Shown in pieces: positions 2,115-42,929 of a DNA stretch of 48,147 bases. Made by a program: the position numbers and the translations under genes. The stretch is from sequence record PV636260.1; one strand, given 5' to 3'. This DNA comes from a phage. A model generated the notes under the pieces. The model was not told the DNA's origin and ran no database searches. It saw only the letters and a program-made list of their open reading frames with translations. The number at the start of each line of letters is the position of its first letter. Position 1 is the stretch's first letter.

Positions 2115-3179
2115 TTACTTATTTTGGTAACGCACCCATGATGGCGTTTCAAGTTCGATCTCGCTTGCGTCGCCAGCGTACCCAGGCCAAATATCCATTT
2201 CAGAGCAAGCCTTGTAAGTGTGGACTACGCTAATGTACTGGTTACGACCGATCCTGATTTGCTCCATAGTCATACGGTAAGCCAGTGCGATATAAGGCTC
2301 TTTTTTCTCCTGCGCAAGCAATCTAACTACGATCGGGATATCTTCAGGGAAGTTGCCTTCAAAAGCGCCAGCCTGGATTGCGCGTCGTAGCAGATCATGC
2401 TGCAAGGCCATTTTCAGATAATACCCGTGATTATATGCAAGGCGCGGGAACTCCAACGGATTTGCGCTCATCGTTGTTTTGAAGTCGGTGATAATCAGTG
2501 CTTCCGGGAAAATAACGTCTTCGAATACCGGATCTCCATTCTCATCATAACCAGTCAGCACACGACCTGGTACATTCTCTTTGTAGTCCAGATGGTCAAG
2601 TCTAACCTTAACCTTTACGCCGGATATCTCACCGAAGATTGAGATCTCACGCTGCGCAGTTTCGCTATTGATGCACGCTTCATGATCGGGATTTTGCTCA
2701 AGAATGGCCCTCATCTTCATACAGGCATCATATTTATCAGCGTCAACCAGTTGCTTTCCTTCAGCGCGCGCCTCAGCTTCAGCAATCAGTTCAATAAGAT
2801 ATTGAACATTGAGATCTTCACCGCAATCAACCATCATTTTGATGAGGTCAGGGTACTGCTTACCGGATGTACCTTTCAGGCCAAAAGATTTTAATTTTGC
2901 TGCCAGTGCCGTTTGCGAAGTAATAAGATCTTTAAACTCTGACGGAGCAGGACAACGCGCATACGTTGCAGTAAACAGATCTCGACTCTCAAAGTTAGTG
3001 TGCGACTGAGTACCGAACTCCAGCGCTTTCGTTGTCTCATTCTTCTTGAATCGCCAGTTAGCTGGGCAAGTTTGATAAATTTCTGCAAGGCTCGATCCGC
3101 TTACATACTCTGCCGCCCAACCTTCGTTGCTATGATACTCGTCATTAGAAAGCTGACTTGATGTGAATACCTGGAACAT
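2115..3179 (-). CDS. recombination exonuclease, PD-(D/E)XK (YqaJ/lambda-Exo-like)
   Basis: RBS AAGGAG; motif ITDFKTT and surrounding acidic residues typical of YqaJ-type nucleases; adjacent to erf and ssb. Confidence 0.7.
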   Translation of the reverse strand: MFQVFTSSQLSNDEYHSNEGWAAEYVSGSSLAEIYQTCPANWRFKKNETTKALEFGTQSHTNFESRDLFTATYARCPAPSEFKDLITSQTALAAKLKSFGLKGTSGKQYPDLIKMMVDCGEDLNVQYLIELIAEAEARAEGKQLVDADKYDACMKMRAILEQNPDHEACINSETAQREISIFGEISGVKVKVRLDHLDYKENVPGRVLTGYDENGDPVFEDVIFPEALIITDFKTTMSANPLEFPRLAYNHGYYLKMALQHDLLRRAIQAGAFEGNFPEDIPIVVRLLAQEKKEPYIALAYRMTMEQIRIGRNQYISVVHTYKACSEMDIWPGYAGDASEIELETPSWVRYQNK

Positions 3180-3210
3180 TGCGCTTATCTCCTTCGTTTA
3201 CGATGAATCC

Positions 3211-3647: not shown

Positions 3648-3676
3648 TTGCAATAAAAGTAAATGCGACATACAAT
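3648..3676 (+). promoter_or_regulatory. sigma70-type promoter for the cor-like/RBP genes
   Basis: TTGCAA - 17 bp - TACAAT, about 30 nt upstream of ATG 3706. Confidence 0.6.
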
Positions 3677-3705
3677 GCAATCACACTAAAGACGAGGACA
3701 CACGA

Positions 3706-3936
3706 ATGAAAAAGTTAATCACCATTATCGCCGCCGCGTTCATCCTGACTGGTTGCGCTCAGAATCTTAAGAATGGCGACTGTGTTACTTACGCTTACGG
3801 ATCTTGCATGATGCGATTCGTTGACGGTCAGAAAGTGCCTGCTGGCGAAATCGATATGCGATTCAAGGGTCTGTCATCCGACGACGATCAGGGCAACTTT
3901 AGCGGCAAGGTGTCAATCAAAACTAAAGAGTGGTAA
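3706..3936 (+). CDS. small outer-membrane lipoprotein, Cor/Llp-like superinfection exclusion candidate
   Basis: Signal peptide with lipobox LTGC (MKKLITIIAAAFILTGC); 76 aa; sits next to receptor-binding locus downstream of J. Confidence 0.65.
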   Translation: MKKLITIIAAAFILTGCAQNLKNGDCVTYAYGSCMMRFVDGQKVPAGEIDMRFKGLSSDDDQGNFSGKVSIKTKEW

Positions 3937-3938
3937 TT

Positions 3939-4895
3939 ATGGGACAAGGAATATATATAAACCTAAACGACGGTCGCCCGGCAATGGAGATAACTTCGGG
4001 TCTTCGCGCACCGTCATGGTGCGGACCCATACAGGCTGACGGGGTTGATTCATCTGGATCGGTGTTTGATTTTGGTTTGCAAATGAGTCCAGGGTCTACT
4101 GCTTTTTGCCTTCCATCTCAGGCTATCTACATAGACGATATGGATTACATCCCGGAGGTGTATTATTTGACTAGTTTTCAGAAGGTAAATGATTCAACCG
4201 GACGAATAACGGTAGGTAATTTTAACGGGCACGGTGGAAGGAGGATGAGATTTTATGGAAACTGCTACGAAATCCTCCCCGCTCAAGCTGGAAATCAGGG
4301 GATACTTGTTAACGATTCAACGAACTTCGCAGCTATACCGAATAACGCCAGATTGATGAGCGCTGCATTTGTTGGGGGGATTCAGGTTAACGGTCAGGCT
4401 CAGTTGCCAGTACAGGGCGTTCCTTTCGGTATGTGGGATAATCCAAACGTAACACTTGAATCTGACGGCAATACAATATGGTGCAGGGATGCAAACTATA
4501 ACGGGATTGATGACGTTGGCGCTAGCGTATACGTGCAACTCGTAATATTTAATAACACTCCACCACCTCCTGGGCTAGGAATAACTATGAGTAACCCTGC
4601 TGGTCAGATCGTTTTCTCAAGCGTTAGACGCCCATTCGTTCTTGGCGGGACTATGGCGATAAATGATGGTTGGCAGTGGTGCGGTGGATTTTTCCCAATA
4701 CTGAGAACAGGTACGATATGCAGAGTTACGGGTGGATATAATAACATTCGATACAAGGGAGTTTGCATGAGCGGCGGTAACGTGAGAAGCGCACCCGGAA
4801 CAAGGGTGGGTAACTATTCTACTCAGAGCGGCGCTCAATTTCCCTTCAATATAAACATTTCAATGCCAATTCCTTTCACTCCAAACATGTATTAA
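3939..4895 (+). CDS. putative receptor-binding protein (distal tail protein)
   Basis: ATG 3939 after RBS AAAGAG; 318 aa, Gly/Asn-rich with PPPP linker; position between cor-like gene and J, converging on J. Confidence 0.5.
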   Translation: MGQGIYINLNDGRPAMEITSGLRAPSWCGPIQADGVDSSGSVFDFGLQMSPGSTAFCLPSQAIYIDDMDYIPEVYYLTSFQKVNDSTGRITVGNFNGHGGRRMRFYGNCYEILPAQAGNQGILVNDSTNFAAIPNNARLMSAAFVGGIQVNGQAQLPVQGVPFGMWDNPNVTLESDGNTIWCRDANYNGIDDVGASVYVQLVIFNNTPPPPGLGITMSNPAGQIVFSSVRRPFVLGGTMAINDGWQWCGGFFPILRTGTICRVTGGYNNIRYKGVCMSGGNVRSAPGTRVGNYSTQSGAQFPFNINISMPIPFTPNMY

Positions 4896-20798: not shown

Positions 20799-21560
20799 TT
20801 AATCTCCTGTAGAAAAGTCTGGAACAGCCCAACAGCGGCAATTGTATTCCTCACCCGGGAATACGTGATCGGAATCTACCGCTATGCGCTTACCTTCCCA
20901 TCTTACATGTTTTTCACGTTCACGTAAATCCATCACCCCACGCCAGAAATAGTAAGAGACTCCAGCGTCTTTTATGCGCTGACGCATTAGTCTACTGTTC
21001 CAGGTTCCAACAATTCCCGACGCTCTATTTTTGGCCCAATTCCGGTAAACACCAAATCGCTCATTAGCAAGTTCAACAACAAAATCCTTGCTTTTACCCT
21101 GACCGGATGCAGCACGAAGTTTATCAGTGAAATCAGTAACCATGTTGGCAGCAAATTTCCTGATAGAAGTAGTCACCTGCGATCGCCACAGATTATATTG
21201 TCCTGAGTACCAGCTTTCGGCAGCGGCAGGACCAATCAGGGCAAGTAGCATTACGGCTTGATTCTTCTTACCTCCAGCATTTCGAGCTATTCGCAACCAC
21301 TGCTTAGAGTTGAATTTATATATAGTTAGCGCAACGGATGATAGAGAACCAATAATCGGAGCGATGAGTGATTCAACGTAATCAAGCAATGACCTTTCTG
21401 TCTGATCTATCTCTTCGTCGGTAGCATCAAATTTCATCGGCTTTAATTCGTCACGCATTTTTTCAGTTAGTTTGGCTGCAACATCCTGTAGGGAGCGCGA
21501 CATTGCGCGCTCGCTCATTTCAGGATAGCGCCACTGTGTTGCAACGCCATTAATTTTCAT
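20799..21560 (-). CDS. head morphogenesis protein (Mu F / SPP1 gp7-like)
   Basis: RBS GGGGAGAAG; position after portal. Confidence 0.6.
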   Translation of the reverse strand: MKINGVATQWRYPEMSERAMSRSLQDVAAKLTEKMRDELKPMKFDATDEEIDQTERSLLDYVESLIAPIIGSLSSVALTIYKFNSKQWLRIARNAGGKKNQAVMLLALIGPAAAESWYSGQYNLWRSQVTTSIRKFAANMVTDFTDKLRAASGQGKSKDFVVELANERFGVYRNWAKNRASGIVGTWNSRLMRQRIKDAGVSYYFWRGVMDLREREKHVRWEGKRIAVDSDHVFPGEEYNCRCWAVPDFSTGD

Positions 21561-22833
21561 CTTCTAACTTCTCCCCTAATCCCGGTTCCGGTTCGGTTGT
21601 TTCTTCCTGTTCGCGAATGTTGATGTTATTACCATCCTTGAGTTTGAACTCAGGGGCAATGGATCGCAACGTGTCTCGAGCTTCTTCCAGATCGATGATT
21701 TGCTCAGTGATAGCTTTCGTGACTGACTCAACGTTATTCTTCGTGATCTCTGATTCCTCTTTCTTACTCGGAACAGACAAAGGCTCAAACTCGATCGACC
21801 ACTCTTGCTCGTCAACAATGAACGGCAGCAAGAACTCAAGAAGAGGCCTGTAATCTTCCTCACGCTTACGATCTACCAGCTTATAGAAAGTCTCAAGCGC
21901 TGTGTTTTGGCTCGCTGATACGCCGCCTACGTTCTTATTTTTGATGATAATCTCATGAATCCCTGAAAGGGAAACAATACGATCCATCTTGCTCGATAAG
22001 AACTCAGGCACTCCGCTGATATCAGAGTTTAGAACATCGTATTCTTCCGTCTCAGCATCGATACCGATCGCACGGCCTACTCCGGAGTTGTCATCAACCT
22101 GAGCAAGTCGCAGGCGCGCAGCATACTGAGCATCGTCATCATCGCACATTTCGGCAAGACCTTTGACCTTCCATACCGCCTGTTGCTTACGCCGCAGGAT
22201 CTGAGTCGCAAGTGATTCGCAATAGTCGTAGTCGCAGATTGCATCAATCAGTGACTTATTCAAAACTGAAGCACCCCACCCCTGATTCTGCTTGCGAATC
22301 TGAGGGGTTACTCGCTCACCATCAGCAATAAAAATTCTTGTGTGGTGGATTAAGTAAGGTTGAAGATTATCGCCAGGAGATACCTTGTATATCTCAGGCT
22401 CACCATAGCGAGGCGATCGAGCGTTGGTTACTCTCTTTTCAACGGTGATTGCAAATCGATCGTAAACACGCACGCCCTCAAGTTTAGCGCCAGGTTTAAC
22501 GGGGCTGGTTAGCATTCTGTTGTCTTTGATGATTGCCACAATAGCAGCCCCACCGTATAGTCTCGCCCAGCAAAGAACGTCAACCAAGCTAGAATCAATT
22601 TTGTAACTATCCCACAGAGACTTGAACTCTTTTTCATCCTTGACGCCTGACATTTTAAATCCAGCCGTCACCATCTCTTCCGGGATAACATCCACAATTC
22701 GCTTCGCGGTTGCGTTGTCGTTGTAGAAAGATCCTACGTGATATGATGCATCAGACATAAAGAATGGCTTAGGCGATCCGTCTGCACCGCCGTTAAAGAT
22801 ATCGTTATATCCATCATGCTTAACAATTTTCAT
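21550..22833 (-). CDS. portal protein
   Basis: Start at ATG 22833 after GGAGGAAAC; 427 aa, acidic C-terminus; position after TerL. Confidence 0.8.
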   Translation of the reverse strand: MKIVKHDGYNDIFNGGADGSPKPFFMSDASYHVGSFYNDNATAKRIVDVIPEEMVTAGFKMSGVKDEKEFKSLWDSYKIDSSLVDVLCWARLYGGAAIVAIIKDNRMLTSPVKPGAKLEGVRVYDRFAITVEKRVTNARSPRYGEPEIYKVSPGDNLQPYLIHHTRIFIADGERVTPQIRKQNQGWGASVLNKSLIDAICDYDYCESLATQILRRKQQAVWKVKGLAEMCDDDDAQYAARLRLAQVDDNSGVGRAIGIDAETEEYDVLNSDISGVPEFLSSKMDRIVSLSGIHEIIIKNKNVGGVSASQNTALETFYKLVDRKREEDYRPLLEFLLPFIVDEQEWSIEFEPLSVPSKKEESEITKNNVESVTKAITEQIIDLEEARDTLRSIAPEFKLKDGNNINIREQEETTEPEPGLGEKLEDEN

Positions 22834-22844
22834 GTTTCCTCCAA

Positions 22845-22875
22845 TAAAAAAGGCCGTCAATTGACAGCCTTGATT
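22845..22875 (-). terminator. terminator-like hairpin between TerL and portal
   Basis: AAGGCTGTCAATTGACGGCCTT + T6. Confidence 0.5.
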
Positions 22876-22887
22876 ATATCTCATTTA

Positions 22888-24456
22888 TTACCGCTTAACC
22901 ATCCCGGCGAGCCGCTTCATTCTCTCGATAGGATCATCAATGGTCAGCAATTCGATGTTCGCCGCATCCATGAAGTTATCGACGATATCATCATGCGGAT
23001 GGGTGTCATCGTAAGTGAAGGCGCTGTGTTCAGCGATAATTTCAGCAAGCATGGGGTGCTCTTCTGGCAGAACCACACGCCCGGCTTTAATAACTGGCTG
23101 AGCATCCATAGCGCGGGTAACTTTGTCTTTGTTACGCTGCAACGGAGTGATAGAGATCGGAGTCTTTTTCCTGAGGTTCTGTATAAGGCCCGTACCGCTC
23201 GCTTTATCTTCCACGTAGATTTTTCGAAGCACGCCCATTGATTTATTGTGTCTCCATGCCTGATTAACGAAAGCGGTAAATTGTTTCTCCATATCCGGCG
23301 CTTCCCACTTACCGCGAATGCCGTCAATAAAGTAAACCTTATCGTTCTTCTTACCCCACAAGCAAAAGACTGTGTAGTCGTTTAGCTCGCCTGTCTTCTG
23401 AGCGGTATCGGCAGTGATGAAACGGTAGTCGTACTTACCCGGATCTGGTTCGTCAGCGTCAAGGCTGCTGCCGTAATAAGTCCACCATTCCGAGTTAAAC
23501 ACGGAGCCACCAAGCGCGATCGGCTTCTGCTGATACTGAGAGTCAAAGGTGTACTGGTCAGCTTCGCGAAGCGCTAACAGGTCATGTACACTTTCCTTAC
23601 TGGGCCAGAACGAGTAATGCTTGACGCCATCAAGTTCGACATACTCAGACGATAAAACGTCGCGCTCGAAGTAAGGTTGTAACCAGTCAGGAAGCGTCTT
23701 TCCGTATTCTTCCGTGACCAGCGCCGGGATCGAGATCTGGTCAAACTCAATACCCATACCTCCATTCATCATAAACCAAGTTGAATCCTGCGCGTGCAGT
23801 CGCTGCTGGATTGCGATAATCGGCGTCTCGTTGTGCATACGACGGGATCGTATGGTGTTCTTCAATAGCATGTGAGTACGCTCACGCTTAACCTTTGAGA
23901 ACATATCGTCAGGCTTGTCTATATCGTCGAGCATTACCATCCCGGAGAATCCCGGCATCATATAGCCACCACGCGAACCTGTGATTCGACCTCCGGCTGC
24001 TGCGGATATTAGCTCGAACCAGACCTTGCCATCTTCGTTAAGAACTTGCATCTCTTCATCTTTCGATGTGCCGAACTTACAGGGCCACAACTCTTGGAAC
24101 TCTTTGCTGCTGATAATCTCACGAACTCGCTTACTGTTACGCTTTACAAGGCTATCTGCAAATGAAACGTTAAGGTTTCGTACCTTCTTGCACTTGAGCA
24201 TTGCGTAAACAGGAAGGTGAATTGAGAACACCTCGGTTTTACCCGAACCTGGCGTGACGTTAAAGATAGTGTTCCCGCGTCGACCTGCAATTATTTCCTC
24301 CACTTCGTGACATAGGTAAAGGTGATGCCAGTTAGGCTGGAACTGCTGCGCCTGCATAAGCTGGAACCAGATCCGAATCATTTTTTCGAAATTGGCCTCG
24401 CTCATTTTCTTGATCGCTAACTTCTGCGTTGCGTTAAGGTCTTCCCATTGAATCAT
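22888..24456 (-). CDS. terminase large subunit
   Basis: Start at ATG 24456 after GGGAGAC; Walker A-like TPGSGKT; 522 aa. Confidence 0.85.
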   Translation of the reverse strand: MIQWEDLNATQKLAIKKMSEANFEKMIRIWFQLMQAQQFQPNWHHLYLCHEVEEIIAGRRGNTIFNVTPGSGKTEVFSIHLPVYAMLKCKKVRNLNVSFADSLVKRNSKRVREIISSKEFQELWPCKFGTSKDEEMQVLNEDGKVWFELISAAAGGRITGSRGGYMMPGFSGMVMLDDIDKPDDMFSKVKRERTHMLLKNTIRSRRMHNETPIIAIQQRLHAQDSTWFMMNGGMGIEFDQISIPALVTEEYGKTLPDWLQPYFERDVLSSEYVELDGVKHYSFWPSKESVHDLLALREADQYTFDSQYQQKPIALGGSVFNSEWWTYYGSSLDADEPDPGKYDYRFITADTAQKTGELNDYTVFCLWGKKNDKVYFIDGIRGKWEAPDMEKQFTAFVNQAWRHNKSMGVLRKIYVEDKASGTGLIQNLRKKTPISITPLQRNKDKVTRAMDAQPVIKAGRVVLPEEHPMLAEIIAEHSAFTYDDTHPHDDIVDNFMDAANIELLTIDDPIERMKRLAGMVKR

Positions 24457-24495
24457 GATTAAGTCTCCCATGTGGGCGCTAGCGCGCCCGTAACG

Positions 24496-31865: not shown

Positions 31866-32441
31866 TTACTTCTCCTCATCCAGTAAATGCGAGCGGAATT
31901 GCTCGACCAGCTTGTTGAGATCGGATACCGAGATATTGCTGCCTTCAAAATCCCTCAAATCGATTCTGAACGCTTCAACCTTCGCATTGAACACGTCGGC
32001 TATGCTCTTTCGCTTCCGACCTCTCTTGCCCTGTTTAGCTTCGCATATGACCTTCTTCGCTTCCTCACCTTCTAGTTCGGTTATGAATATCGTCACCCCG
32101 TCAACCTGATCGCGGTTGATTCGCACAGATACGGCCTTATTGTGCACCTTGAGCATGTGGCGCTTGATGATATTGGACACATACGACGCGGTGAGTCGTT
32201 CTAGCAACCAGGCTGATCGAGATGTGTACTCGTTAACGACTGCCTCATCAATCTGGTCATCGTTAAGTTCCACGCCATGAGTAGCCTTTACAATCTCGGC
32301 CTGCTCATTGACGTACACTTCAACCATTTGCTTTCCGGTGATTGAGAACTCATTCCCTGATTGGTTGATTTCAATCGCCTTTCGAATATAGTCCGGCAGG
32401 TTGAGTTCAAATTCTGTCACTTCTTTAAGCTGAGTTTTCAC
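31866..32441 (-). CDS. hypothetical protein, first gene of the leftward early operon
   Basis: GTG start after GAGGT; 191 aa. Confidence 0.5.
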   Translation of the reverse strand: MKTQLKEVTEFELNLPDYIRKAIEINQSGNEFSITGKQMVEVYVNEQAEIVKATHGVELNDDQIDEAVVNEYTSRSAWLLERLTASYVSNIIKRHMLKVHNKAVSVRINRDQVDGVTIFITELEGEEAKKVICEAKQGKRGRKRKSIADVFNAKVEAFRIDLRDFEGSNISVSDLNKLVEQFRSHLLDEEK

Positions 32442-32489
32442 TTGTCTATACCTCGTTGTCTATGGTTGTAACTTTCAACTTCGAAAAAC

Positions 32490-32519
32490 ATGTTACAGCT
32501 ACAACGTCAGATGCGTCAA
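32490..32519 (-). promoter_or_regulatory. candidate sigma70-like leftward early promoter
   Basis: Minus strand TTGACG - 18 bp - TAACAT, about 50 nt upstream of the first gene. Confidence 0.35.
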
Positions 32520-32851
32520 TGTCTATAGCTGCATTTTTTATTTTTGTAACCAGTGCAACCGATGCAACCGACTTTTTCTATAAAAGTAAGAACATCTATT
32601 TATGCGCGCGGAATAGTATGTTTTTTATACTATGCATCACGAAATATATGCCACCCTCAAAAAATGCGGTTGCACCTATTACGCCGATTACATACCAATA
32701 TATAATATAATAAATAAATAAATATATATTATCTATCTTATTATTATATATAGATATTTTATTATCTATAGGCCTATCGATTCTCTGGCCATTTTGTAAC
32801 ACCCCTGATGGTATACAACTATTACGACAATTACAACTAACGCATAGACGA

Positions 32852-32871
32852 ATAGCACGTTTTGCTAAAAA
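32852..32871 (+). promoter_or_regulatory. copy of the repeated element within the large intergenic region (no obvious -10 at the usual spacing)
   Basis: ATAGCACGTTTTGCTAAAAA. Confidence 0.4.
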
Positions 32872-33221
32872 TGGAGATGACCACCAGGCGAACTGGGTAA
32901 CACTAAATCCCCCCTCTCACAATCATTGCAATCTAAGCAACAAATCAACCAACTGTTGCACACCATGCAACAATCACATTTCATCATTCGAGATCAATCA
33001 TGATCGTAATTATTCCAGATATTCCAGTATTGATGGAATAATGAGCAATTATTGGAATAGCATTTTTTGCCACACATCAGCCCTGCCGATCGGGTATGAT
33101 TCATCTCATCAACCAATCAGAGGAGATTTGCAGTGAAATTAATCTGGTCGCTATTCGACGGTTCCGGCCTTGCAGGTCATGAACTTAACTTTGCGCGATG
33201 TCTTCCGTTTTGAGGTGATGA

Positions 33222-33749
33222 ATGATTTGGCACGATTACTTTACATACAATCCGAAAACTGGAAAGCTGTTCTGGAAAGAAAGAAAAGATATACACAAAT
33301 CAAGAGTTAAACAATGGAATGCTCGCAATGCTGGTAATGAGGTTGGCTCTTTGGGTAGTGGTGGCAGATATTTAGAAACTACACTTACTGTAAACGGAAA
33401 ACGTTATAACCTGAAAGTTCATAGAATATGCTATGAAATGCACTATGGCCCAATACCTGAAGGAAAGGCGGTTGATCACGTAAATCACATCACGACTGAT
33501 AACAGAGCAATAAACTTTGAGTTAAAAGATCATAAAGGAAATATGCGAAACACATCAAAACAGAAAAACAATACAAGTGGCATACCAGGTGTGCATAAAA
33601 ATAAACATGGCAAATGGGTTGTAAGGATTGGAGGGGGAAAGCGAGGGAGGAGGATTTACATAGGGTGCTTCTCAAGTTTTGATGATGCGATTTCCGCAAA
33701 GAAAGCAGCTGAATATGAACATGGATACCATGAAAACCACGGCAAATAG
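33222..33749 (+). CDS. HNH endonuclease with C-terminal AP2 DNA-binding domain
   Basis: HNH core VDHVNHITTDNRAINFEL; AP2-like SGIPGVHKNKHGKWVVRI...IGCFSSFDDAISAKKAAEYEHG; RBS GAGGTGA. Confidence 0.7.
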   Translation: MIWHDYFTYNPKTGKLFWKERKDIHKSRVKQWNARNAGNEVGSLGSGGRYLETTLTVNGKRYNLKVHRICYEMHYGPIPEGKAVDHVNHITTDNRAINFELKDHKGNMRNTSKQKNNTSGIPGVHKNKHGKWVVRIGGGKRGRRIYIGCFSSFDDAISAKKAAEYEHGYHENHGK

Positions 33750-33765
33750 CACTTTTTGTTAAAAC
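33746..33765 (+). promoter_or_regulatory. repeated element (ATAGCACTTTTTGTTAAAAC) abutting the HNH stop codon
   Basis: The TAG of ATAGCAC is the HNH stop codon; -10-like TAATTA about 20 bp downstream. Confidence 0.5.
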
Positions 33766-33822
33766 TCGATCGGTGCGATTTGGCATAATTACCTCATCGA
33801 AACGAGATTGAGGAAAAACAAA

Positions 33823-34008
33823 ATGGCACGTCGCATCACTAAAGAACTTAAAGTTCTGAACAAAGAAAACGTAGTTAAAATCCTGGTTATTTGGGGATAC
33901 AGCGAAGAGTCAGCAAAGCAGAAGGTAGAAGCAGGTTACGACCTGGCTATCAAGGCAATGCCTAACGACGACGCAAAAGGCATTGCAAACTATGTAGCGT
34001 TCTTTTAA
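33823..34008 (+). CDS. hypothetical protein
   Basis: ATG 33823 after GAGGAAAAA. Confidence 0.5.
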   Translation: MARRITKELKVLNKENVVKILVIWGYSEESAKQKVEAGYDLAIKAMPNDDAKGIANYVAFF

Positions 34009-34023
34009 TTAACAGGCTAACAA

Positions 34024-34209
34024 ATGAAAACGAAATTAGTGCATAAATCAGAAATCAAGATCGGCGATACTGTGATTCACAACGGAGAGCTTAAAACTGT
34101 TGGCAAGGAGTCAATAACCAAAGATGAATTTATGGGGTTATTGTTGTTCGGGGACTCCTATCGACTTGGTTACAAAATGGTTGAGCTTGTTGAAGATGTA
34201 AAATTCTAA
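34024..34209 (+). CDS. hypothetical protein
   Basis: ORF; stop followed directly by the repeated element. Confidence 0.5.
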   Translation: MKTKLVHKSEIKIGDTVIHNGELKTVGKESITKDEFMGLLLFGDSYRLGYKMVELVEDVKF

Positions 34210-34259
34210 ATAGCACTTTTTGCTAAACGAAAATGCGGGAGGGCTGCTATAGTTCTCCC
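34210..34259 (+). promoter_or_regulatory. repeated element (ATAGCACTTTTTGCTAAAC) plus hairpin with TATAGT
   Basis: Hairpin GGGAG-N13-CTCCC with TATAGT in the loop, then RBS GAGGTAA. Confidence 0.55.
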
Positions 34260-34284
34260 ATCAACAGAAAACGAGGTAATCACC

Positions 34285-34656
34285 ATGTTTAAACAATTCG
34301 TAGACCTGGACTTCTCAGCAAGCACAGCAATCCAGACTGACGAGAAAGAGAACGTAGCGATCGAGAACATTGCGCGAAAGATTTACAACAAGCAAGAGAA
34401 GGCAGTGAGAGCCGCTCTAAGCGCTTATTACGGCGTAAGTGATGCAATGGAGTGCGTGAACCGAGTAACCCGCGCAGTGGACCATTTAGGCGTGTCTCGC
34501 TTCATTGATAATGATACTGGAGAGACAATAATCCAGCTTAACAACCCATCAATGCGGACCGAGCTTGGCAATATTGCATTATGGGGCGTGGCTAACTACT
34601 CAATCACTGTAAACTCCTGCATTGCGGATCGTGTTAAGGAGGCATTGTATGAGTGA
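34285..34656 (+). CDS. hypothetical protein
   Basis: ORF with RBS. Confidence 0.55.
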   Translation: MFKQFVDLDFSASTAIQTDEKENVAIENIARKIYNKQEKAVRAALSAYYGVSDAMECVNRVTRAVDHLGVSRFIDNDTGETIIQLNNPSMRTELGNIALWGVANYSITVNSCIADRVKEALYE

Positions 34657-35629: not shown

Positions 35630-35632
35630 TTG

Positions 35633-35842
35633 ATGGAACGGGATAATTTCTGGACTCGTTATTTTGCCGCTCTTGATGCCGGGCTTAGTGCGGAATGGTG
35701 TATCAAGGTTGCATATAAGGAAATCACACTTGAGGACGCGCTAGGAAATATGGATATGGACGCAGAAAGCGAATATAATCCAAACTTCGAGTTACCTGGC
35801 GATGATATTGATGAGGACGACGACGATTATATTCCCTGGTAA
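35633..35842 (+). CDS. small highly acidic protein
   Basis: C-terminus PGDDIDEDDDDYIPW; 69 aa. Confidence 0.5.
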   Translation: MERDNFWTRYFAALDAGLSAEWCIKVAYKEITLEDALGNMDMDAESEYNPNFELPGDDIDEDDDDYIPW

Positions 35843-41977: not shown

Positions 41978-42219
41978 ACGATTGTATCAGCTTTAAGTTC
42001 TTCCACGTCTTTCTGTATGATTGAAGGCCAATTCTCTATGTATTCATTTTTTATCTCATCGAAAGACATATCAAGAGAACTAGTGAACTCCCACAGATCG
42101 CAACCAATAACATCCTGAGTCAATCCGTTTCGCTCCATAATTTCGCAGCAGGTAGCTCGATAAAGCAGCCATAAACCTTGATCAGTTAACTTAACCGGAA
42201 TCATTTTCTCGTTAATCAT
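41968..42219 (-). CDS. hypothetical protein
   Basis: ATGA coupling with the dam stop; RBS GAGGAAAG. Confidence 0.5.
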   Translation of the reverse strand: MINEKMIPVKLTDQGLWLLYRATCCEIMERNGLTQDVIGCDLWEFTSSLDMSFDEIKNEYIENWPSIIQKDVEELKADTIVQH

Positions 42220-42929
42220 ACTTTCCTCACTTTTGCGCGATTGTTTTTCACCGAAGGGCAAATGCTTGTGATTGGGATATAGTGAGTTTGCTGCGTCTCA
42301 CCCTCTTTAAGTTCGCGCATAATGAAAATTACCGAACCTTTGTTGTTACCGTCAACCGCCTTTCCTGTTTCACCGGATATGAACGCCAGGCGACCTGATC
42401 GTGCATATTCATTGCCGTCAATATCCTCAGTCAAGTCAGCTTCAATCCAGATGATTTCAGCCGCGTGCTGTCGAGCCTCAGTAAACCACGCCGTCGAGTT
42501 ATCGGCAGGTAAAAGAATATCGATCTGGTTGTTGTGCTCCATTTGCTCAATCGCTTTCTTGACGAATATATCAGGTCGACTGTAAGGAGGATTTAACCAT
42601 ACGTGCTTATTTTTACCCCACCAACGTTTTAAGCAGTTTGTTTCCTGGGAATAAAACTTCTCGCAAACTTTATTTTCTTCGCTTGCCGCAGCGTCGAGAT
42701 CATATTTTTCGTAGCGACCCTCAAGGTATGCGATAACCTCGCGTGGGGTTGACCATAAATCACGAACGGCGTCAGGTGTATTGGTTCCCTTGTATCTACG
42801 GCCTGAAATCTCTTTGCAGGTCGGCGTTTTCAGTGCCTGATAATAACAGCCTGATGCTATTGCTTCACGAGTGAATGAGCACCCAGTATCTGCAAAGTCT
42901 ATGGTTTCGATATCATTAAAGTCTTTCAT
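42216..42929 (-). CDS. dam: DNA N6-adenine methyltransferase (Dam-like)
   Basis: Catalytic motif NPPY (WLNPPYS); RBS GAGAGGAA. Confidence 0.8.
   Translation of the reverse strand: MKDFNDIETIDFADTGCSFTREAIASGCYYQALKTPTCKEISGRRYKGTNTPDAVRDLWSTPREVIAYLEGRYEKYDLDAAASEENKVCEKFYSQETNCLKRWWGKNKHVWLNPPYSRPDIFVKKAIEQMEHNNQIDILLPADNSTAWFTEARQHAAEIIWIEADLTEDIDGNEYARSGRLAFISGETGKAVDGNNKGSVIFIMRELKEGETQQTHYIPITSICPSVKNNRAKVRKV

Follow-up and report, generated by a model that had tools for sequence, protein, structure and literature searches.

An HNH-AP2 endonuclease gene, probably a homing-type cassette, in place of a Dcm-like methyltransferase gene in a T1-like phage

Genomic context of the locus

The analysed DNA (PV636260.1; a stretch of 48,147 nucleotides, hereafter the window) comes from a T1-like phage that falls into Tunavirus, a genus of the Drexlerviridae. 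When 2 kb around the locus were used as query, 156 phage records matched, nearly all of which are T1-like phages of Escherichia or Shigella, and the best whole-region match is DELF2, which aligns with 93% of a 24-kb query at 93% identity. The locus heads the plus-strand genes past a divergent intergenic region of 691 bp (32442-33132), and its features are collected in Table 1. A first-pass annotation, made from the letters alone, had placed here the first gene after the large intergenic region, coding for an HNH nuclease with an AP2 domain, behind a 26-codon ORF with a GTG start and a strong ribosome binding site. Its coordinates, start codon, codon count, ribosome binding site and position past the intergenic region were all confirmed, as was the gap between the stop codon of the short ORF and the HNH start codon, which is exactly 8 nt (33214-33221). 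The stop codon of the short ORF overlaps the Shine-Dalgarno sequence of the HNH gene, GAGGTG. The HNH gene is an ORF of its own with its own Shine-Dalgarno sequence and ATG, and an Rfam scan of 32000-34300 at E≤0.1 returned zero matches, so that there is no intron or riboswitch in that segment.

Table 1. Features of the HNH-AP2 locus and its borders
Feature	Position	Strand	Remarks
Repeat box AATAGCATTTTTTGCCACA (33056-33074), then -10-like TATGAT (33095-33100)	33056-33100	+	Conserved ahead of the methyltransferase genes in AV106 and DELF2
Former methyltransferase Shine-Dalgarno sequence, GAGGAG	33120-33125	+	7 nt ahead of the GTG; aligns with the methyltransferase ribosome binding sites of AV106 and DELF2
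Upstream short ORF	GTG 33133 to TGA 33213	+	26 codons; methyltransferase/gp50 chimera
Methyltransferase 5' stub, codons 1-18, MKLIWSLFDGSGLAGHEL, with AdoMet motif I (FDGSG)	33133-33185	+	blastn/tblastn against AV106
Last nine codons, including the stop, of the Poky gp50 homologue (NFARCLPF-stop)	33186-33213	+	28 nt; aligned to Kalemo, GS71, Poky and L008/L009
Shine-Dalgarno GAGGTG of the HNH gene	33212-33217	+	Identical in the Tempevirinae copies
HNH-AP2 endonuclease gene	ATG 33222 to TAG 33749	+	175 aa; homology and domains
HNH core (beta-beta-alpha-metal), ~aa 65-110	33414-33551	+	Preceded by an N-terminal beta-rich region
AP2-like domain, ~aa 118-166	33573-33719	+	Profile and predicted fold
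Same sequence as the final 21 nt of the relatives' methyltransferase ORF, GCAAATAGCACTTTTTGTTAA	33742-33762	+	Provides the last codon and the TAG stop of the HNH gene; AV106 blastn
Repeat box AATAGCACTTTTTGTTAAA (33745-33763) and extended -10-like TGGCATAAT (33781-33789)	33745-33789	+	Right boundary of the one-gene slot
DUF7421 protein gene	33823-34008	+	Pfam DUF7421, E=3e-41; 95% identical to AV106; conserved right flank, outside the cassette

Domain architecture and conservation of the HNH-AP2 protein

The assignment of the encoded protein to the HNH endonucleases is firm. It matches the Pfam family HNH_3 (PF13392) over aa 65-109 (E=1.1e-13; 51 bits against a cut-off of 24.8) and the PHROG family phrog_99, annotated as 'HNH endonuclease' (E=2e-51). 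A family profile of 40 aligned homologues matches I-HmuI (1u3e) with E=5e-8, and the same structure is the top Foldseek match of the AlphaFold model (pLDDT 87.8), at E=1e-4 over 104 columns with a TM of 0.40, and the sole PDB match below an E of 0.001. Four residues, D85, H86, N94 and N110, are invariant among the 40 homologues, conservation reaches at least 90% for a further two, N98 and N107, and these six align with D74, H75, N83, N87, N96 and N99 of I-HmuI. By analogy with I-HmuI, we take the Asp-His pair to be catalytic and the Asn residues to belong to the metal finger; the I-HmuI-like catalytic residues are kept, and the catalytic core is intact.

The AP2 domain is real, but weak by sequence. 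The full-length protein gives no match to Pfam AP2 (PF00847) at E≤0.1, and its C-terminal 69 aa alone reach 19 bits (E=0.0018), below the cut-off of 33.3. The combination of PF00847 and PF13392 is precomputed on seven homologues, which align with 79-99% of the query (all but one with at least 94%), and the family profile matches the second AP2 domain of WRI1 (E=4.8e-4). In the model, the C-terminal domain consists of three strands (124-126, 132-136 and 145-150) and a helix (153-166), for which Foldseek retrieves the AP2 domains of TEM1, WRI1, ERF96 and ERF1 with probabilities of 0.98-1.0 and E-values of only 0.03-0.2. The HNH-AP2 architecture proposed in the first-pass annotation is accepted here, its AP2 part being sub-threshold by Pfam and backed by the homologues, the profile and Foldseek. 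An exact-protein look-up of the HNH protein of the window returned no record. All copies of the gene are intact, with 175-176 codons, and comparison with five of them gives dN/dS values of 0.11-0.19; the protein is under purifying selection.

Replacement of a Dcm-like methyltransferase gene in the Tunavirus slot

In 54 records that cover the locus with its flanks (AV106 and 53 others), the slot is filled by a ~705-bp DNA methyltransferase gene, annotated as 'Dcm-like' in the BASEL phages, the product of which bears the FDGSG, FPPC and ENPV motifs of C5-cytosine enzymes. The gene matches phrog_757 (E=1e-83) and is, in AV106 as in the other 53 records, the first of the rightward operon. An HNH gene at the Tunavirus slot was found elsewhere only in the Shigella phage S2_02, among 50,697 phage records, where the junctions are identical to those of the window; the two genomes share 96% identity over 33132-33808, and 87% or no match outside this module. 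Homology between the window and AV106 in blastn extends over 32801-33185, breaks off and restarts at 33742, and a tblastn search of the whole window with the AV106 methyltransferase recovers residues 1-18 only, 17 of which are identical. An interior of 631 bp in the methyltransferase gene has been swapped for 556 bp of foreign DNA, and the GC content of the insert is 39% (39.0% for the HNH gene), as compared to a mean of 45.1% in the window and 52% in the interior that was lost. On these alignments the methyltransferase gene was evidently displaced by a horizontally acquired HNH cassette, and not split by a plain insertion. The slot methyltransferase of the window is cut to 18 codons and cannot function, and a search of the whole window for another copy of either the Dcm-like methyltransferase or the HNH gene found none. 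A second methyltransferase, of the Dam type, is kept in the window at 42216-42929. The slot methyltransferase is evidently dispensable, since it is present but frameshifted in the closest genome, DELF2 (93%), and is likewise flagged as frameshifted in ADB-2.

The segment ahead of the short ORF (33056-33100) likely held the promoter of the methyltransferase gene before its replacement and would now serve the stub ORF and the HNH gene, while that at the right border (33745-33789) is the likely promoter of the gene which follows the HNH gene. A generic scan of 32300-34100 for sigma-70 promoters and terminators yielded sites no more numerous than in shuffled sequences, and flagged none upstream of the stub.

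Homologues in the Tempevirinae and other phages

Copies of the HNH gene in the Tempevirinae, where it is located after gp50, are 90-93% identical to that of the window, and the similarity extends over 28-40 nt of upstream sequence. The gene is found in 12 of the 136 matching Tempevirinae records (Poky, Kalemo, GS71, PeterMerian and others; 90-91% identity), in all of which it follows a 74-codon gene (gp50 in Poky) and abuts a homologous methyltransferase gene. Three states of the Tempevirinae slot can be distinguished. In A139 and FritzSarasin, gp50 is directly followed by the methyltransferase gene, and the site is precisely empty. When filled, the HNH gene stands in place of 22 nt, comprising the methyltransferase ribosome binding site spacer and first five codons, and in the resulting gp50-HNH-methyltransferase state the HNH stop codon overlaps a new methyltransferase start codon (CATGGGAAATAA), which is supplied by the end of the HNH gene. 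In the third state, represented by the metagenomic contigs L008, L009 and L010, the HNH gene follows gp50 and the methyltransferase gene is absent. This third state is the nearest to the window, with 92.7% nucleotide identity over 33180-33805 and 95% protein identity, and shares its exact 3' end, CACGGCAAATAG followed by CACTTTTTGTTAAAA.

Distribution of the gene is sporadic, both at the Tunavirus slot, where the presence/absence comparison that the first-pass annotation had proposed sets 54 methyltransferase genes against one other HNH gene (S2_02), and among the Tempevirinae. That annotation had named universal presence at this position, with no insertion signature, as evidence against a mobile element; the gene is not universal, and A139 and FritzSarasin provide precise empty sites. 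On its left flank Poky shares 98% identity with FritzSarasin, but its methyltransferase gene, on the right, is 97% identical to that of A139 and only 72-75% to that of FritzSarasin. By this pattern, and by the drop in identity to S2_02 outside the shared module, the HNH gene sits at recombination boundaries, with co-conversion of its flanks.

The place of the methyltransferase gene differs between the two groups, as it heads the operon in Tunavirus and lies between gp50 and a helicase gene in the Tempevirinae; the gp50 homologue of Tunavirus is encoded 2.4 kb downstream (35630-35842). More distant HNH homologues are found in the nin region of lambdoid prophages (73-75% protein and ~74% nucleotide identity), where they are not adjacent to this methyltransferase family, and the only two relatives in IMG/VR, 73-74% identical, also occur in lambdoid-type contexts. 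Homing endonuclease genes are already annotated in this phage family, as is the case for a 'homing endonuclease' in BEK12A.

Junctions of the cassette and origin of the short ORF

The left joint falls between 33185 and 33186, with GGTCATGAACT upstream of it as in AV106, and downstream TAACTTTGCGCGATGTCTTCCGTTTTGA, which encodes a gp50-type tail (...N-C/F-A/P-R-C-F/L-P-F-stop). Homology to the HNH region of the Tempevirinae (Kalemo, GS71, Poky and L008/L009) begins at 33180-33194, and gp50 of Poky ends in CARCFPF before its stop codon. The joint is illegitimate and in frame, essentially without microhomology. Because the fusion is in frame, the chimeric ORF stops at the native site of the donor, inside the HNH Shine-Dalgarno sequence.

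The right joint lies within 33741-33764, where a stretch of 23 nt (33742-33764) is identical in the window, AV106 and L008. Past this joint the window tracks AV106, with one mismatch in ~60 nt, and not L008. The HNH-only contigs L008-L010 have the 3' end ...CACGGCAAATAGCACTTTTTGTTAAAA, as does the window. An illegitimate event made in Tunavirus was considered for the right joint and rejected, as L008-L010 already had the GGCAAATAG-box end in the donor type. The right-joint stretch represents one of ~20 copies of a repeat box in the window, which occur at gene boundaries and are always oriented with transcription. From this one junction, we infer that the right joint formed by homologous exchange within the repeat box. 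The box corresponds to the 21-nt direct repeat aaATAGCACnnnTTGnTAAAA of phage TLS, for which a function as stoperator, enhancer or UP-like element was left open (PMC11447400). Since the 3' end of the methyltransferase gene and the HNH stop codon both lie inside the box, the slot is a one-gene cassette bounded by the boxes at 33056 and 33745.

With the homology to AV106 interrupted between 33185 and 33742, the short ORF consists of methyltransferase codons 1-18 followed by the gp50 tail. The upstream ORF with its strong ribosome binding site thus exists as first annotated, its identity being that of a methyltransferase remnant with an imported 28-nt tail; the strong ribosome binding site is the methyltransferase gene's own, and the ORF is a fossil and no purpose-built leader. 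Both stub alleles, in the window and in S2_02, start with GTG, as opposed to ATG in the intact methyltransferase genes, and this shared, derived state fits a single origin of the replacement event. The 26-codon chimera is confined to these two genomes, and the Tempevirinae HNH gene is preceded by the full 74-codon gene and not by a 26-codon ORF. The two stub copies differ at four positions, one of them non-synonymous, which is too few for a test of selection. An exact search of IMG/VR and the JGI metagenomes for the 25-mer spanning the left junction found it absent, and the allele is therefore rare and without visible spread.

The geometry of the junction suggests that the short ORF is probably translated from the methyltransferase ribosome binding site, and the placement of its stop codon inside the HNH Shine-Dalgarno sequence may couple the translation of the two. 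As a good ribosome binding site is kept and the ORF stops where the upstream gene of the donor ends, the stub plausibly feeds ribosomes to the HNH start codon. The donors show the same layout of stop codon, Shine-Dalgarno sequence and ATG ahead of the HNH gene. An in-frame fusion arises by chance in one of three cases and proves nothing on coupling.

Nature of the cassette and alternative explanations

The locus is probably best explained as a free-standing HNH-AP2 homing-type cassette of Tempevirinae-type origin, which replaced the Dcm-like C5 methyltransferase gene heading the rightward early operon of Tunavirus. The gene is a member of the known HNH-AP2 class of free-standing homing endonuclease genes, and its product would cleave site-specifically and home. 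As an event, the replacement falls within the usual mosaicism of phages; its junctions are unusually clear. The cassette would be transcribed from the old methyltransferase promoter, with ribosomes starting at the methyltransferase ribosome binding site and GTG, stopping in the HNH Shine-Dalgarno sequence and re-initiating at the ATG 8 nt further on, as they would in the donor. Positioned by the AP2 and N-terminal domains, the HNH site, similar to that of I-HmuI, would then act in cassette-free phages on a target within or close to the 5' end of the methyltransferase gene, and the nick or break would be repaired from a cassette-bearing genome in a mixed infection. Such repair would spread the cassette and erase or displace the methyltransferase gene. 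The left joint is essentially without microhomology, and the transfer was therefore not textbook homology-guided homing.

In its new neighbourhood, which differs from that of the donor, the cassette landed in the one gene that is also its neighbour in the donor, and this points to a target within or close to the 5' region of the methyltransferase gene. We regard this placement as tentative, a possibility that falls somewhat short of an even chance. The presumed target gene survives in the stub with its first 53 nt, which include the methyltransferase start and motif I, and this counts against the homing-type explanation; were the target wholly within these 53 nt, the genome bearing the cassette would not be immune. 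A more speculative and rather doubtful extension is that this HNH-AP2 lineage is a 'methyltransferase hunter', which would target the conserved 5' end (start to motif I) of Dcm-like genes in the Drexlerviridae, follow these genes from one genomic neighbourhood and subfamily to another, displace or erase them, and use the 21-nt boxes as homologous landing pads.

The nuclease could instead be domesticated and no longer a selfish homing element, and could benefit the phage, for instance through the exclusion of relatives that infect the same cell, the breakdown of DNA from the host or competitors, or action against defence. Its strong purifying selection (dN/dS 0.11-0.19), its place at the head of the rightward operon, with a promoter and ribosome binding site that once belonged to the methyltransferase gene, and the occurrence of the same allele in two phages with different outer flanks are all consistent with such a role. 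An active homing gene would, however, show purifying selection too, and a single other record with the gene at the slot, against 54 with the methyltransferase, as well as its sporadic presence in the Tempevirinae (12 of 136 records), make domestication unlikely. It is also hard to separate from the homing-type explanation, as marker exclusion and homing are two readouts of one activity. Far less credit can be given to a restriction-modification-like pair of the Poky type, formed by the HNH protein and the adjacent Dcm-like methyltransferase, of which the nuclease in the window would have been orphaned by loss of the methyltransferase. The overlap of HNH stop and methyltransferase start (CATGGGAAATAA) in the 12 Tempevirinae records links the two genes translationally, but most genomes have the methyltransferase without the HNH gene, and the window, S2_02 and L008-L010 have the HNH gene without the methyltransferase, which an obligate toxin and antidote would not tolerate. 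The combination of AP2 with an I-HmuI-like HNH domain is, furthermore, the architecture of homing enzymes and not of known restriction enzymes.

A similarly very low probability is assigned to the short ORF being a dedicated regulatory leader peptide, evolved to control expression of the HNH gene. Its good Shine-Dalgarno sequence, the gap of only 8 nt to the HNH ATG, the overlap of its stop codon with the HNH Shine-Dalgarno sequence and the in-frame fusion, which puts termination at the native position of the donor, would all suit a leader, but the first 53 nt are the methyltransferase 5' end (17 of 18 residues identical) and the last 28 nt the tail of the gp50-like gene of the donor. The ORF is, moreover, confined to two genomes sharing one recombination event, and is not conserved wherever the HNH gene occurs. 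A function of the HNH protein as a terminase packaging cofactor of the HK97 gp74 type has nothing in its favour other than the HNH motif, and can be practically discounted. T1-type phages package their DNA by a headful (pac) mechanism. The genes for the terminase large subunit (22888-24471) and portal protein span 21550-24471 on the minus strand, opposite to the HNH gene, which is situated in the early region ~8.7 kb from the large subunit gene; this distance makes a packaging role unlikely. Nearly all close relatives are without the HNH gene yet package normally, and the AP2 domain and I-HmuI-like fold also speak against a cofactor. The first-pass annotation, which had noted that the gene is not next to the terminase and had considered a mobile homing element likelier than a packaging cofactor, is supported on both counts by this distance, the sporadic occupancy of the slot and the sharp junctions.

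Relation to known systems and significance

Free-standing selfish nuclease genes are well known in the T-even phages, where the Seg and Mob proteins (e.g. MobE) are encoded by intergenic genes that vary between relatives, spread in mixed infections and co-convert their flanks. The gene in the window behaves alike, but combines a different nuclease with a different DNA-binding domain, and a neighbouring gene was removed here, rather than the nuclease gene being inserted between genes. The best structure and profile match over the N-terminal sheet and HNH core, I-HmuI (PDB 1U3E), is an intron-encoded nicking HNH enzyme of Bacillus phage SPO1, and the equivalents of its D74, H75, N87 and N96 are conserved in the HNH protein of the window. 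I-HmuI is, however, encoded in a group I intron and has helical C-terminal DNA-binding modules, whereas the gene here is free-standing with an AP2 domain, and identity between the two is ~22%. In phages, cyanobacteria and protists, HNH-AP2 genes form a recognised family of homing endonuclease genes (Magnani, Sjolander and Hake 2004, cited in PMC10448857). The family includes the IPA-HNH genes of vibriophage ICP1 (PMC10448857), which share with the window's gene an N-terminal HNH and C-terminal AP2 domain, a free-standing small phage ORF, sporadic occurrence and a location at the boundaries of genetic exchange. The HNH domains of ICP1 are too divergent for the HNH_3 profile (PMC10448857), in contrast to the clear HNH_3 member found here.

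A link between an HNH homing-type element and a phage DNA methyltransferase gene has also been reported in the actinophage ShiLan, where an HNH endonuclease is hidden in an insertion within a DNA methylase gene (PMC11855218). In ShiLan the insertion is in frame, the methylase is still translatable and the HNH is out of frame (PMC11855218), whereas 18 codons of the methyltransferase are left in the window. The box known from the 21-nt TLS repeat brackets the slot here in two copies, and a role as recombination joint is our proposal for it.

The general understanding of homing endonucleases is unchanged by this locus, to which are added an explanation of the short ORF and the identity of the replaced gene. 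It provides a nucleotide-resolved case in which a selfish nuclease gene overwrote a neighbouring phage accessory gene, and in which the invader would be expressed by way of the fossil of the overwritten gene, comprising its promoter, ribosome binding site, start codon and 18 codons. In annotations, the short ORF is to be read as a gene remnant and not as a new regulatory element. Dcm-like methylation, of which most related phages are capable, is expected to be missing from this phage, with possible consequences for its host range among restricting strains; in the BASEL study, these methyltransferase genes showed no simple relation to restriction sensitivity. If the HNH-AP2 lineage does follow and displace methyltransferase genes, its movement would switch the DNA-modification state of the phages, and hence their sensitivity to restriction, and the 21-nt boxes would make such one-gene cassette swaps easy.

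Repeat box and divergent intergenic region

About 20 copies of a repeat box, AATAGCAC-nnn-TTGyTAAA, occur at gene boundaries in the window, with the orientation of every copy matching that of local transcription. The box itself has already been reported in phage TLS (PMC11447400). Its core is formed by the short palindrome TAGCA-N5-TGCTA, and in most copies an extended -10-like element, TGnTATAGT/CATAAT, which is often enclosed by a GC-rich inverted repeat, follows at a constant 22 nt past TTGCTA. This fixed spacing would place the centre of the palindrome near -42, a position resembling that of a class II activator site. Mid-way in the 691-bp divergent intergenic region, a strongly AT-rich, partly palindromic stretch (ATATATAATATAATAAATAAATAAATATATATTATCTATC...) could represent an origin or regulatory region.

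Positions of features in the window and in related phages (for Poky, GS71 and DELF2, positions within loci L005, L004 and L017)
Feature	Genome	Position	Strand
Box copies	window	14563, 18328, 32851, 33056, 33745, 34209, 35842, 36342, 45957	+
Box copies	window	10643, 25055, 26886, 28181, 28701, 30336, 31628, 41978, 43001, 45510, 47052	-
AT-rich stretch	window	32690-32770	
gp50 homologue	window	35630-35842	+
Second methyltransferase gene	window	42216-42929	-
HNH-methyltransferase junction	Poky	3040-3075	
Shortened methyltransferase gene	GS71	2753-3190	
Second HNH gene	GS71	3648-4145	
Split methyltransferase gene	DELF2	2237-2941	

Genomic context of the HNH endonuclease and slot methyltransferase

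In Poky, and at the equivalent positions in Salmonella phage GS71 and a further locus encoding both proteins (L003), the HNH insertion has removed the native RBS and first five codons of the methyltransferase gene. The replacement ATG is supplied by the 3' end of the HNH gene (CATGGGAAATAA) and overlaps its stop codon, so where both genes are present the methyltransferase is probably expressed through coupling to the invading HNH gene. The methyltransferase gene downstream of the HNH gene in GS71 is shortened to 438 nt, and a second HNH endonuclease gene, unlike the first, lies two genes downstream. Second genes of the HNH_3 type are also found downstream of the helicase gene in an HNH-only Tempevirinae metagenomic contig (L008) and downstream of ninG in L011.

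The latter is one of the E. coli prophage contigs and IMG/VR loci (L011-L016) where HNH homologues with 73-75% protein identity are encoded in the nin region of lambdoid prophages. Their genes are flanked by ninG on one side and by an ORF resembling a membrane-protein gene on the other, with a Dam (PF05869) methyltransferase two genes upstream. The window also encodes a 70-aa protein homologous over its N-terminal two thirds to Tempevirinae gp50, whose gene precedes the HNH gene in the donor phages, with a differing, acidic C-terminus; gene order near the methyltransferase thus differs between the two subfamilies.

Some 20 UNVERIFIED GenBank records titled 'Campylobacter phage' (MG0656xx, including L006) are T1-like Hanrivervirus genomes with 92-97% identity to E. 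coli phages at the HNH/methyltransferase locus, and Campylobacter as their host looks doubtful.

Within Tunavirus, a frameshift splits the slot methyltransferase gene of DELF2, which is the nearest relative with a sequenced genome, and the ADB-2 copy carries a frameshift flag. This gene seems to have decayed repeatedly in the genus. A second DNA methyltransferase gene (phrog_111; Dam-type according to the annotation of relatives) is intact in the window, and therefore one of the two methyltransferases of this phage has been lost, rather than both.
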